A DNA stretch of 12,864 nucleotides from Candidatus Hodarchaeota archaeon (GCA_016839785.1 JAEOTQ010000173.1:1-12864), one strand, 5' to 3'; shown: positions 2,354 through 7,389, counted from the first letter of the stretch. Program-made: numbers and translations. The notes: a model not told the origin generated them from the letters alone.

Positions 2354-2605
2354 GAATCTAATACTCCTCTAGGGAATAAATCCAATTATCAAGAAAGAAA
2401 TTATGAATCATAATGATAGAAAGGAAATTAAAACCTATTCATTTGACCCCGTCTCGTACAATTACAGACATTGCCAGCCCTGAATGTAAAGGTATGACGT
2501 TTCCAATAAAGTTTAGGGTTAAACAACAAAAGCGATAGAGATTATTCAATAATTGGTAAAGTGATTTGACAAAACTTTCTAGTATATTTGATAGAGGTAT
2601 AATAC

Positions 2606-3058
2606 ATGTCTAAAAAAGAAAATGCGCAAGAAGAAACAAAAGAGTCATCAGTACCTTGGATTCCAGGCTTTAAAAAGCCAACAATTGATTTCAGAAGACC
2701 AAATTTCGAACTTCCCTACGAGGCACCTCACAAATACATTATATTCGTTATTATTCTTTCTACTATCTTTATATTAGCAGGAGGCATATATGATATTGCT
2801 GAAAATCCTTTACCGATGGGACAAACTCAATCTGCGCTTGTTCCTGTTTTTCAATCACCTAGCGAACAATTTCTGATAGAATCGCTGATTGCTGCTCTGT
2901 TTTTTGGCCTTGGAGCAGGTGGACTTTTCATGATTAGATATTCCACACGTTTTGCATATGATGTTAGAACATCCATTACTCTCTTAATCCTTGGTATTAC
3001 TCTTACCATCATCGCTGCTGGTGGAACAGTAATTATGTACGACTTCAAAACAAGCTAG
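2606..3058 (+). CDS. Oligosaccharyltransferase accessory subunit, OSTC/DC2-like (OST3/OST6 membrane-domain family)
   Basis: 150 aa with three hydrophobic segments. Motifs FILAGGIYDI..NP and QFLIESL.A..FF.LG..G resemble eukaryotic OSTC (GGIIYDVI.EP, QYIMEGLAS.FLF.MG..G, from recall). Confidence 0.8.
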   Translation: MSKKENAQEETKESSVPWIPGFKKPTIDFRRPNFELPYEAPHKYIIFVIILSTIFILAGGIYDIAENPLPMGQTQSALVPVFQSPSEQFLIESLIAALFFGLGAGGLFMIRYSTRFAYDVRTSITLLILGITLTIIAAGGTVIMYDFKTS

Positions 3059-3080
3059 TATAATTATAACCATCCGTTTT

Positions 3081-3264
3081 GCCGGGGTTTCAGTCAATAA
3101 CTGGGATGAATTAAATCCTCAACGACCCGATAGCCAAGCGGACGGGTTTATACTTTATAATGCCCTGTATTACGGCGCTGGCCTTGAGATCTCGATAATC
3201 AATTATTGAGGTTAGATAGCCAGTGTACAATGTGTACTCGAGGGTTCAAATCCCTCCCCCGGCG
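3081..3264 (+). tRNA. tRNA-Ser(TGA) with three introns (3089-3131 at 8/9; about 3144-3170 in the D-loop; 3189-3217 at 37/38)
   Basis: Acceptor GCCGGGG 3081-3087/CCCCGGC 3257-3263, discriminator G3264, anticodon stem CTGGC 3178-3182/GCCAG 3219-3223, anticodon TGA 3185-3187, long variable arm GTACA/TGTAC, T-arm 3240-3256. Spliced length about 85 nt. Each insert has BHB-like junctions. Confidence 0.9.
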
Positions 3265-3430
3265 CTTAACTATGAATAAACTGGGATTTTTCTTTTGAGG
3301 ATTTTTCTCCAATAATTTAGATACTCCTTAGCCAATATAAAGAAGCTTCTAAGGAGGTAGAGCTAGAACCAATAATGCTTTTAACTCCAAATTATTCACC
3401 CCAGCTGAACATTCTAGCAACAAGAATTGC

Positions 3431-4470: not shown

Positions 4471-5811
4471 TTACTCACTAGATATTAGTTCGTTTACAAT
4501 ACCTACAGCTATTGTACTTCCAGAATGCCGTAAGATTATTCTTCCTAGCTCTGCGTAGTCTGTGAATTTCTCAACAACAAGAGGTGCATTGATAATTAAA
4601 TCCACTTCTACTAATTCCCCTTCGAATGCTATCGTAATGCGTCCATCAAAATCTCTTGGTAATTTTTTATATTTTGGGCTTTTATTCAGAATTTTCGTAA
4701 TTGACTCAATTTGAGCGGTAGAATATGAAGCACCACAATGAAAAACAACTGATGATCCTGGAACAAACGTACCTTCTAAAATTAAAAGTCGAGAGCGAAT
4801 TTTTGTACTAAACTGATATTTTGTGTTCCTAGGAGCTAACACTATGCCTTCTTCCAAGATATCTTTAGGCAAGTTTCTCAATAAAACTGATCCGTGTTCT
4901 CCTGGATTGAGAAATTCTTGCTTATCATCCTCAACCCATAATTCTTTGATTTCTGATTCTATCCCTTGAGGGAGTATTTTCACTTTTTCCCCAGAGTTAA
5001 GTGGCTGACACAGGACTTTTCCTAATAAAAATGTCCCAAATCCATGTCTCTCTATTATATCATAACCTACGAACCGCATCTCCATATCTTTCTCATATTT
5101 TACTCCTTCCAACGAATTCAAAGCTTCTAAAAGTGTTTGACCTTGATACCATTCCATTTGGCTTGAATGTTCTGATAGATTCTCCCCAGCTAAACCACTG
5201 ATCGGAATAAAAGGTATACTATCAATTTGTTGAGTCCAAGGAGATTGGATCTCCCGAAATAGCTGTTTTATTTTTTCAACTGCTTCGTGATATCTCTCCT
5301 GTGTGTAACCGACTTGATCCATTTTATTTATGGCAATTATTACTTGATTAATTCCTAGTACGGAGGCTAAAATTGCATGTTCTCTTGTTTGACCCCCTGG
5401 ATCTTGAGGGCCTCCTACCTTCAATCCCGATTTCAAATCATTTGGTACTGCACTTATCACTAATACGCAAGCATCTGCCTGAGATGCTCCTCGAATCATA
5501 TTCTTTACAAAATCCCTATGACCCGGAGAATCAATCAACATAAAGTTTCTTTCTTTTGTTTCAAATGGATAAAAAGCAATATCAGATGTAATACCTCGTT
5601 GTTTTTCCTCTGGAAGTGTATCAAGGACGTAAGCCCACTTCCATGATTCCATTTGATGTTCGATAGCTTCTTCCTCTAGTTTTTCTATCACCCGAACATC
5701 AATAGCGCCAATCTGCGATAGAAGATGGCCCAATGTAGTAGATTTACCATGATCCACATGGCCAATCCATATCAAAGAAATAGTTGGTTTGGAATTAACC
5801 ATAAGAATCAC
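4471..5811 (-). CDS. EF-1alpha-family translational GTPase, divergent paralog (Hbs1/eRF3-like features)
   Basis: G1 GHVDHGKST, RGIT, G3 DSPGH, GQTREH, G4 NKMD, G5 SGL, with domains II and III present but divergent. Likely start is ATG at 5802. Confidence 0.9.
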   Translation of the reverse strand: MILMVNSKPTISLIWIGHVDHGKSTTLGHLLSQIGAIDVRVIEKLEEEAIEHQMESWKWAYVLDTLPEEKQRGITSDIAFYPFETKERNFMLIDSPGHRDFVKNMIRGASQADACVLVISAVPNDLKSGLKVGGPQDPGGQTREHAILASVLGINQVIIAINKMDQVGYTQERYHEAVEKIKQLFREIQSPWTQQIDSIPFIPISGLAGENLSEHSSQMEWYQGQTLLEALNSLEGVKYEKDMEMRFVGYDIIERHGFGTFLLGKVLCQPLNSGEKVKILPQGIESEIKELWVEDDKQEFLNPGEHGSVLLRNLPKDILEEGIVLAPRNTKYQFSTKIRSRLLILEGTFVPGSSVVFHCGASYSTAQIESITKILNKSPKYKKLPRDFDGRITIAFEGELVEVDLIINAPLVVEKFTDYAELGRIILRHSGSTIAVGIVNELISSE

Positions 5812-5859: not shown

Positions 5860-7389
5860 TTAGGAGGCGTATTTACCTCGTTCGACTTTTTGGACTACTC
5901 CAACAGCAACTGTTTTTCCAGAATCACGGAGAGCAAATCGTCCAAGTGCTGCAGTTTTTGCCATTGGTTCTACTACTAAAGGAGTCAAAGGAGTCATCCA
6001 CACCATACCTCTCTCACCTTGACCTAGATTGTCCTTTTCTTGGACTGCGGTTACTCGGCAAGCGACTTGGGCAGTTCCACAATGGACTACAGGAGAGTAA
6101 TTTTCATGAATTCCCCAGGCTTCGTCCTTCTTCTTTGCTTTTTTACCCAGTCCTCTGACCACGAGTACTAAGGATAAAAATCCATCAACATTTGGTTTTA
6201 AAGCTTCTGCAGGGTCAGCTGGATCACTCATTACAGCACCACGTATAATATCCTTTGCACCAACATTTTTCGTTTTAATATTAAAACCGATATTATCTCC
6301 GGGTGTTGCTTGTGGAATATCTTTGTGAAATTCTTGTATCGATTTCACCGTAATTGGTACGGGTTCAATGCTCTGTTTTGTAGGAGAAATTACCATCTCT
6401 GAATTTGGTTTTAACACTCCAGTAGAAAGCCTTCCAGTTAAGACCGTTCCTACACCACTAATATTGAGGGTTTGCTGAATTGGTAAGCGAATTGCTTGTT
6501 TTGCCAACGCATCTTTACGAACTGCGGGTGATTCCAGAATATCAAGAGATTCAATAAGGGATGGTCCATCATACCATTTTAATCCCTCAAAACCTGCTTT
6601 TATATCCTCAATTTCTTTTTCTAACGATGTAATGAACTCAGGATCTGCATTTCCAGCTTTTGCTGCAGTTACATGTCCTTCTAAGTTTTTAATTGAATTT
6701 TCTTTAGAGAGAAGATTTACACCCACTAATCCACTAGTAGGGACGTATTTAATTGCTGCTAAACGGGCCTCTTTATTCTCTATCTGTAATGCTCCCATTA
6801 ATTGAGTAAAGATTGTATGAATTGCGGTTTTAATCTGTTCATATCGTTCCTTACCCCAGTCAACAACGTCCATCTTATTGATAGCTACAACTATATTTGT
6901 AACTCCAAGTGAAGTTAGGAGTAGCATATGCTCTGTGGTCATTCCTATAACGTTAGCATATTTTCCAGAAGCGGTTCCAGCGACTTTGGTACCATCTTCA
7001 AATTCTCCTTTTCTCGCAGATACGACTAAAATAGCGGCATCTGCTTGAGAAGCGCCGGTAATCATATTTTTTATAAAATCACTATGGCCTGGAGCGTCGA
7101 TTAAGTTATAGATGAATTTCTTGGTCTTAAATTCTTGAAAAGATATGTTAATTGTGAGACCTCGTTCTCTTTCATCCATCAGAGGATCCAAAATCCAGGC
7201 GTACGACCAGCTACCCATGCCTGTAGCTTTGCTATCTTTATAGTATTTTTCAGCAATTCGCCAAGGTTGTCGTTTCTTTTTAGGATCATGTATCTGACCT
7301 AGTAAGAACAACATGTGGCCAAGACCGGTAGATTTTCCGTGATCAACGTGTCCAGTGACCACTAAATTCATTCTTTCGAGATCTGCCAT
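5860..7389 (-). CDS. tuf: Elongation factor 1-alpha (aEF1A), divergent, with several insertions
   Basis: GHVDHGKST, ERERGLTI, DAPGH.DFIKNMITGASQAD, NKMD, RLPIQ....ISGVGTV.TGR, PGDNIGFN, LGRFALRD.GKTVAVG. Family is secure; whether this is the main elongation factor is inferred. Confidence 0.85.
   Translation of the reverse strand: MADLERMNLVVTGHVDHGKSTGLGHMLFLLGQIHDPKKKRQPWRIAEKYYKDSKATGMGSWSYAWILDPLMDERERGLTINISFQEFKTKKFIYNLIDAPGHSDFIKNMITGASQADAAILVVSARKGEFEDGTKVAGTASGKYANVIGMTTEHMLLLTSLGVTNIVVAINKMDVVDWGKERYEQIKTAIHTIFTQLMGALQIENKEARLAAIKYVPTSGLVGVNLLSKENSIKNLEGHVTAAKAGNADPEFITSLEKEIEDIKAGFEGLKWYDGPSLIESLDILESPAVRKDALAKQAIRLPIQQTLNISGVGTVLTGRLSTGVLKPNSEMVISPTKQSIEPVPITVKSIQEFHKDIPQATPGDNIGFNIKTKNVGAKDIIRGAVMSDPADPAEALKPNVDGFLSLVLVVRGLGKKAKKKDEAWGIHENYSPVVHCGTAQVACRVTAVQEKDNLGQGERGMVWMTPLTPLVVEPMAKTAALGRFALRDSGKTVAVGVVQKVERGKYAS

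Follow-up and report, generated by a model that had tools for sequence, protein, structure and literature searches.

Non-canonical BHB introns, several of them per gene and cut by a two-subunit EndA, are textbook knowledge for the Thermoproteales, as set out in the available part of one review (PMC4090602). The positions listed there are 3/4, 20/21, 22/23, 25/26, 29/30, 30/31, 45/46, 53/54, 56/57 and 59/60, followed by an 'etc.' (PMC4090602). In Asgard archaea, 92-95% of the tRNA genes of three complete genomes carry introns, often non-canonical and multiple (PMC11291895), and in the accessible text of two studies these introns fall at BHB boundaries far above chance, with gains and losses recurring among close relatives (PMC11291895, 10.64898/2026.10.13.758758). 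A further group consists of the split and permuted tRNAs of Nanoarchaeum equitans, Caldivirga maquilingensis, Thermofilum pendens and Cyanidioschyzon merolae (PMC4090602, PMC3218864, PMC3728597, each for the portion available). For C. merolae, a red alga, the available text describes how energy and position determine the sequence in which a precursor's motifs are processed (PMC3728597).

The window analyzed here, a stretch of 12,864 nucleotides from Candidatus Hodarchaeota archaeon (GCA_016839785.1, JAEOTQ010000173.1:1-12864), contains at 3081-3264 on the plus strand a gene for tRNA-Ser(UGA) with three introns of 43 nt, 27 nt and 29 nt, the first of which lies between bases 8 and 9. The gene shares 3-nt bulges, a 4-bp helix and two EndA subunits with the archaeal non-canonical BHB introns in the available descriptions (PMC4090602, PMC4033280). 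Up to three introns per gene are reported in the same texts, and three are present here (PMC4090602, PMC4033280). Common to both is also that the intron position disrupts the tRNA body, so that an alternative precursor fold is needed. Whereas the hosts in those accounts are hyperthermophilic crenarchaea, the host of this gene is a low-G+C Asgard archaeon of the Hodarchaeales type, and the outer helix of the first intron appears to be extended by the 5' leader. The two Asgard studies deal with the same phenomenon, in which most tRNA genes are interrupted and many are missed by annotation; they center on Atabeyarchaeia, Freyarchaeia and Jordiarchaeia, and their accessible text names neither position 8/9 nor a leader helix (PMC11291895, 10.64898/2026.10.13.758758). 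As in split and permuted tRNAs, where by the available accounts a leader or trailer outside the mature tRNA builds the BHB helices (PMC4090602, PMC3218864), sequence upstream of the gene seems to contribute to the splice signal. The four exons, however, are colinear in one gene of 184 nt, which rules out a split or permuted tRNA gene, and the leader would only lengthen the outer helix of a cis-intron. The 8/9 intron of this serine tRNA is not a fundamentally new kind of intron; the only potentially new feature is the leader helix, which covariation supports. An initial annotation of this DNA had suggested that 8/9 might not be among the commonly listed archaeal intron sites, and 8/9 is indeed absent from the positions listed in the available review text, but the 8-nt first exon is not extreme: an intron at 3/4 is in print, so this exon is not the shortest known (PMC4090602). 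No paper naming an 8/9 intron or a leader-extended cis-intron was found in a literature search for which '8/9' is an unsearchable term and outside which the main position catalogues lie; 8/9 introns may well be listed in the tables of those catalogues.

The leader, exons and introns are given below in window coordinates.

3073-3079, plus strand: 5' leader strand TCCGTTT, predicted to pair with 3136-3142 (tRNA positions 13-19)
3081-3088, plus strand: exon 1, the acceptor 5' strand (bases 1-7) and U8; pairs with 3257-3263 in the spliced cloverleaf
3089-3131, plus strand: intron 1, 43 nt, position 8/9, hBHBh' motif, with cuts after 3088 and 3131
3132-3143, plus strand: exon 2, comprising A9, the D-stem 5' strand and the start of the D-loop, from the spliced alignment and the ARAGORN cloverleaf
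3144-3170, plus strand: intron 2, 27 nt, a D-loop insertion following mature base 20, with a relaxed HBh' motif
3171-3188, plus strand: exon 3, comprising the end of the D-arm, the anticodon stem 5' strand and the anticodon loop to base 37, with TGA at 3185-3187
3189-3217, plus strand: intron 3, 29 nt, at the canonical 37/38
3218-3264, plus strand: exon 4, comprising base 38, the anticodon stem 3' strand, the 5-bp variable arm, the T arm, the acceptor 3' strand (3257-3263) and the discriminator G3264

Joining the exons by script gave an 85-nt class II cloverleaf, which ARAGORN called tRNA-Ser(tga). The product has an acceptor of 7 bp, a D stem of 3 bp, a variable arm of 5 bp and a T arm without mismatch; no mismatch is present in any stem, and the G+C content is 63.5%, in contrast with the A+T-rich introns. 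The raw gene was detected neither by ARAGORN on the window nor by Rfam at the gathering threshold, nor by Rfam at E up to 10 over 3040-3300, nor by a genome-wide run of the Rfam tRNA model at E up to 1. The matches that Rfam returned in 3040-3300 at E up to 10 were sub-threshold, fell on the T arm only and belonged to unrelated families, and were rejected. The expectation that standard annotators would miss the gene is therefore true for ARAGORN and Rfam/Infernal. Assembled into 248 contigs, the genome (G000) totals 4.04 Mb at 84.5% completeness, and a DNA search of it found no second UGA isoacceptor.

Intron 2 has a central helix at 3138-3141/3165-3168 with two G:U pairs and an inner helix at 3145-3147/3162-3164, without an outer helix. 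In intron 3, the central helix (3183-3186/3212-3215) contains one U.U mismatch, the role of outer helix falls to the anticodon stem, and 8-9 bp make up the inner helix (3190/3191-3198 with 3203-3210/3211). An intron at the D-loop site is present in all 22 orthologous copies of the gene, with lengths of 23-28 nt, and so is the 37/38 intron, at 20-32 nt. The initial annotation had seen intron 1 and overlooked these two further introns and the leader-extended outer helix.

The strict hBHBh' form of the splice motif has flanking helices on both sides, with a minimum of 2 bp. Intron 1 shows this form, with two 3-nt bulges, a 4-bp helix, symmetric cuts and helices on both sides. The outer helix is made of G3081-C3134 and C3082-G3133, the central helix of C3083-G3129, G3084-C3128, G3085-C3127 and G3086-C3126, and the inner helix of T3090-A3125 and C3091-G3124. 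The 5' bulge is G3087 T3088 | T3089 and the 3' bulge A3130 T3131 | A3132, the bar marking the cut. The layout is that of the canonical archaeal BHB, in which the 3' bulge adjoins the outer helix and the 5' bulge adjoins the inner helix; cleavage 3' of the second base in each bulge removes 3089-3131. Our own BHB scan scored the site with 4 central, 2 outer and 2 inner pairs. Each base pair that had been proposed for 3081-3134 is present in the sequence, and the BHB geometry and the spliced 85-nt cloverleaf agree on an 8/9 intron that leaves a first exon of 8 nt. A permissive scan (4 central pairs with 2 pairs on either side) returns about 75 sites in about 190 nt, so the motif on its own is weak evidence. 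When the intron was shuffled in place with its exact boundaries, 4/4 central pairs with at least 2 inner pairs arose in 4 of 5000 shuffles at this locus and, over 15 loci, in 4-55 of 5000 per locus. The motif is more than a chance product because joining the exons yields a perfect tRNA-Ser and because 7 of the 22 orthologs lack exactly this segment. Two other intron classes were considered for intron 1 and rejected: the canonical 37/38 class, as the insertion lies between bases 8 and 9, and a self-splicing group I or II intron, as the insertion is only 43 nt long and drew no Rfam match of that type, either at the gathering threshold or with E relaxed to 10.

A DNA search for the gene covered 60 relatives in addition to G000 and found it in 20 of the 21 other genomes of the genus. 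The Asgard ortholog search that the initial annotation had called for thus yielded 22 gene copies in 21 loci, 15 of them with the 8/9 intron; the copies outnumber the loci because one genome has a tandem pair, as determined from the spliced alignment and anchor motifs. Gene order is kept: all 21 loci, drawn from 21 genomes of the genus, have a membrane-protein gene on the upstream side, and S10 and S7 follow downstream in every case where the contig is long enough. The intron is 36-49 nt long and lies between U8 and A9 in the 15 copies that carry it. In the seven intron-free copies, GCCGGGGT is followed directly by AGCC at exactly the same boundaries, the very junction predicted from removal of 43 nt. 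Only one of the 15 intron-bearing copies deviates in exon 1. Over the 21 genomes the exons are nearly invariant, whereas the intron sequences diverge almost completely between clades.

Does the intron lie exactly at 8/9? In this window a cut at 7/8 would give the same product, as T3088 equals T3089 and the intron ends in AT, and in L008 a 9/10 cut would do likewise. A 7/8 cut, on the other hand, would lose U8 in nine copies whose intron ends in AA or AG, and the BHB geometry, with the cut after the second bulge base, gives 8/9 in 15/15 copies. A position of 7/8 or 9/10 is accordingly very improbable.

The splice motif itself is retained through this divergence. The central helix is complete (4/4) in 14 of the 15 intron-bearing copies and 3/4 in the other, and all 15 have an outer helix of 2 bp and an inner helix of 2-8 bp. 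The intronic strand of the central helix varies among CCCG, CCTG, TTCG, CTCG, TCCG and ACTG, and all of these except ACTG pair fully with the fixed exon strand through G:C or G:U pairs. The inner helix changes on both sides, as TC/GA, TTGTAA/TTACAA, TTCTCTTC/GGAGAGAA, TAGTA/TACTA and others. These pairings were quantified in alignment A1, which holds the 15 intron-bearing rows with the structure written out by hand. Standard pairs fill 95.5% of its 264 cells, compared with 24.6-44.0% after the 3' partner has been shifted by 1-3 columns; these slid controls preserve the relatedness of the rows, yet the pairing collapses. Changes on both sides occur in five pairs of the whole structure; of the 5 inner pairs, 4 show them. 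None of 500 shuffles equaled the observed pairing or covariation score, a count that is not a probability because the rows are related. Judged from these alignments, the splice motif is maintained by compensatory change and is under selection.

The same comparison bears on whether the locus could be a decaying pseudogene or carry an unspliced 43-nt insertion, for instance a mobile-element scar, with another tRNA reading UCA/UCG. A further copy could be hidden in the unassembled part of a genome that is 84.5% complete, and one ortholog does resemble a pseudogene. Decay is contradicted by exons that stay nearly invariant across 21 genomes while the introns diverge, by the compensatory upkeep of the motif, by a spliced product free of stem mismatches and by the failure to find a second UGA gene, and we give this explanation hardly any weight. 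The pseudogene-like ortholog belongs to the tandem pair in L013 (G013 contig C266). Of the two, the upstream member has retained both intron 1 and the leader helix; its exon 1 is changed at two positions and no acceptor 3' strand matches it, which makes it a probable pseudogene. Neither intron 1 nor the leader helix is present in the downstream member, which looks intact. The intron at 8/9 is real and conserved and very likely protein-spliced, and it sits in an essential tRNA gene that is invisible to two standard tools.

A search pattern consisting of this gene's own exon 1 and exon 2 sequence with a gap of 25-55 nt matched in 15 of 83 genomes of the class, all of them in one genus, and the same pattern read backwards had no match. 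Among 61 genomes in 17 other genera of the class the interrupted-gene pattern was found in none, a result that does not show the absence of 8/9 introns there because the pattern is fixed to the exon sequence of this gene. Some orthologs contain an additional intron of about 29-33 nt in the T-loop or T-stem (the second copy of L013, L014, L016, L017 and L019-L022); in L014 and L017 this brings one tRNA gene to four introns (8/9, D-loop, 37/38 and T arm).

Upstream of the gene, the leader strand at 3073-3079 can continue the outer helix of the intron 1 motif across a 1x1 mismatch (T3080/C3135), lengthening it from 2 bp to about 9 bp. At least 6 of the 7 leader pairs are present in 15/15 intron-bearing copies and in 3 of the 7 intron-free copies; the remaining four intron-free copies have only 2-4 of the 7. 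The pair at leader position -5 (A1 columns 8/77) is GC in 12 rows, AU in 2 and GU in 1, and that at -4 (A1 columns 9/76) is UG in 13 and CG in 2, corresponding to a compensatory change from g-C to a-T in two copies and from t:G to c-G in two. An a/C mismatch in the leader helix occurs in none of the 22 copies.

The history of these copies was followed on a tree of three flanking proteins (447 columns, rooted at the midpoint for display purposes only). L016, L019 and L021, the three copies with the helix but without the intron, form one clade with support 100/99, nested in a 96/92 clade whose other six members carry the intron, a pattern that would be explained most simply by one recent intron loss. 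Three of the copies without intron and without helix (L009, L020 and L022) make up a separate 84/90 clade, and the fourth helix-free copy is the second member of the L013 tandem pair. The chance that four helix-free copies all fall among the seven intron-free ones is 35/7315, calculated by hand on copies that, being kin, are not independent; the association between leader and intron amounts to about 2-3 independent evolutionary events.

From this pattern we infer that the leader is transcribed, and the upstream RNA probably helps intron 1 to fold for cutting. A helper role of the leader is one towards which we lean slightly. The fuller proposal is that the leader is a built-in folding helper that completes the splice signal, frees the acceptor 5' strand, tethers the 8-nt exon and imposes an order of processing, and that leader and intron evolve as a unit, with the helix decaying after intron loss; we put this forward tentatively, as not quite an even prospect. 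The intron might instead be spliced with the leader uninvolved, the upstream bases being a promoter-proximal or RNase P-context element, their complementarity to the D-arm incidental, and EndA cutting a motif with an outer helix of 2 bp. The complementarity kept in 3/7 intron-free copies is in accord with that explanation, as is the acceptance of a relaxed motif without any outer helix both in the same gene (intron 2) and in the available literature text (PMC4090602). A DNA-level element, however, would not be expected to covary as the leader pairing does or to avoid an a/C mismatch in 22 copies. The three helix-keeping intron-free copies, moreover, are a single nested clade consistent with recent intron loss, and the four intron-free copies outside it have only 2-4 of the 7 pairs. 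Non-involvement of the leader is thus conceivable, at roughly one chance in three.

Two scans were made of the sequence around the gene. A sigma-70 and terminator scan of 2950-3320, bacterial in type whereas the host is archaeal, gave one promoter-like site against 0.8 expected and no terminators. No spare acceptor 5' strand was found upstream on the plus strand in 2454-3080; GCCGGGG with at most one mismatch has 8 matches in the window against 6.3 expected.

Then, how can a motif that is built on acceptor bases form at all? The motif uses bases 1-6 and so excludes the acceptor stem. Minimum-energy folding misses the exact BHB register, and constrained energies were used for this reason. For 3081-3143, the minimum is -12.2 kcal/mol and the BHB conformer has -7.8, 4.4 above it. 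Adding the leader (3066-3143) lowers the minimum to -21.5, in a fold that itself contains the leader helix and the two outer pairs; the exact BHB conformer, at -18.0, is 3.5 above it. The most stable fold of the full precursor (3066-3270), at -69.8, is acceptor-closed; the BHB conformer reaches -60.8 and is less stable by 9 kcal/mol. The greater stability of the acceptor-closed fold suggests that cutting would take place before, or instead of, acceptor closure. The initial annotation had rightly seen that the acceptor 5' strand is used; its statement that splicing must occur while the acceptor stem is open would fit these predicted energies. The leader helix covers bases 15-18, which are also needed by the central helix of intron 2 (3138-3141), so the leader helix motif and the intron 2 motif cannot coexist. 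The 3' end of intron 1 (GACCCG, 3124-3129) can also pair with CGGGTT at 3143-3148, on the border of exon 2 and intron 2; this pairing, which the acceptor-closed minimum-energy fold contains, could be a competitor of both splice motifs.

These considerations lead to the following proposed order of events. The precursor would be at least 184 nt long, with its three introns cut by EndA and its exons joined by RtcB. Acceptor bases 3-6 would pair with the intronic CCCG as the central helix, and bases 1-2 with 10-11 as the outer helix. As the motif consumes the acceptor 5' strand, we infer that it would have to form on RNA still being transcribed, while the acceptor 3' strand, which follows 125-180 nt later, has yet to be made or paired. 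The leader at 3073-3079 would pair with the D-arm (13-19), stabilize the motif and hold the tiny 5' exon for ligation. After removal of intron 1, the acceptor stem would close and RNase P would cut off the leader; the D-loop intron could fold after that, once bases 15-18 are freed from the leader. We consider it very likely that 3081-3264 is a functional tRNA-Ser(UGA) gene with three EndA-cut, RtcB-joined introns, and we are still a little surer of intron 1 itself.

Metagenome runs were inspected for the joint. Five runs came into question, each with a small share of sampled words, and the contigs of four were compared with the window. The contigs of X1 stop at 3050-3054, and X4 gave no contig at the locus. 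In X2 and X3, recorded as RNA in two studies, one contig each skips exactly 43 nt, the joint running from 3087 to 3131 or equally from 3088 to 3132, as one letter fits both sides. Introns 2 and 3 are still present in both contigs, which extend upstream by 116 nt or more into the protein gene, reaching 2965 in one and beyond 2950 in the other, and that of X3 ends at 3264. They are 90-95% like the window, with 1 and 10 differences before the joint and 18 and 10 after it, most of them in introns, and therefore come from other strains or species. Whether of RNA or DNA origin, these joined contigs confirm the boundaries of intron 1.

The contigs could be true splicing intermediates from which intron 1 has been removed first, with the leader and introns 2 and 3 kept. 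X2 and X3 come from separate studies and skip exactly 43 nt at the predicted cuts, and the end of the X3 contig coincides with the discriminator base 3264. The 123 nt upstream of the joint in X2 differ from the window by a single letter, and the intron is in the DNA of all five genomes of the window's clade, which supports this origin mildly. Several points speak against it: the 10-18 letters that differ downstream of the joint indicate other strains, intron-free genomic versions exist in the genus (7/22 copies), RNA libraries can hold DNA, and in mixed communities contigs frequently break off at the edge of conserved sequence. The contigs may simply be DNA or RNA of intron-free relatives rather than spliced RNA, and we regard splicing intermediates as a serious candidate that falls somewhat short of probable.

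The enzymes for such processing appear to be encoded in the genome. Two matches to PF01974, the EndA catalytic domain, exceed the cut-off with 99.4 and 64.8 bits. The two ORFs encode 182 aa (contig C116) and 215 aa (contig C222), and as predicted from sequence these paralogs would fit the two-subunit type of Asgard archaea described in the available text (PMC5829648). PF01139 (RtcB) has matches on two contigs. They lie at C169 3109-3975 and C135 49341-49904 and cover family positions 1-284, up to the contig end, and 245-426, which could reflect either an assembly break or an interrupted gene (e.g. by an intein).

The Rfam tRNA model finds only 20 genes above the gathering score in this 4.04-Mb, 84.5% complete genome. 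A census of tRNA genes, anchored on U8, an intact T arm and a 7-bp acceptor paired along its whole length and blind to genes with T-arm introns, gave 35 candidates, from which 6 A+T-rich pseudo-acceptors were dropped by eye. Among the 29 left, this tRNA-Ser is the sole gene in which a strict BHB in the range 6/7 to 12/13 restores the start of the D-arm. A tRNA-His(GUG) gene on the minus strand of contig C209 (reverse-complement 4500-4599) contains a 29-nt intron that the alignment allows at 8/9 to 10/11. The motif fits 10/11, with central pairs 4/4 (bases 5-8), 9 inner pairs and 1 outer pair, which leaves a first exon of 10 nt; G-1 is encoded, and ARAGORN called the spliced gene tRNA-His.

The window itself has two other tRNA loci. 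At 1-198 on the plus strand is a candidate tRNA gene with a perfect 7-bp acceptor (GGGAACG/CGTTCCC), U8, a normal start of the D-arm and a T arm; tRNA landmarks spread over 198 nt imply about 120 nt of introns. Brute-force removal of BHB segments from it gave 1661 products acceptable to ARAGORN out of 34,353 combinations, with dozens of anticodons, which makes intron reconstruction without orthologs unreliable; by eye, the gene may be Trp(CCA). At 1183-1279 on the plus strand lies a tRNA-Ala(CGC) with about 24 nt inserted between the anticodon and T arms, seen as an insert in the Rfam model (54.6 bits), which is probably a non-canonical intron near 45/46. Opposite the S10-S7 genes, the minus strand carries adjacent genes for EF-1-alpha-like GTPases of 446 aa (4471-5811) and 509 aa (5860-7389), the latter with a long insert; they are possibly a pair of paralogous translation GTPases.

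To standard tools, tRNA sets appear incomplete in the Hodarchaeales, a group that ranks with the closest archaeal relatives of eukaryotes, and genes such as this tRNA-Ser(UGA) explain part of the gap. A splice signal built on the acceptor strand would mean that EndA substrates need not resemble a tRNA when they are cut, and the gene with intron 1 would be a natural test case for co-transcriptional, ordered tRNA splicing. Within one genus, the presence and absence of the intron, together with a leader helix that appears to outlive it, would provide a rare dated series for the loss and gain of introns.
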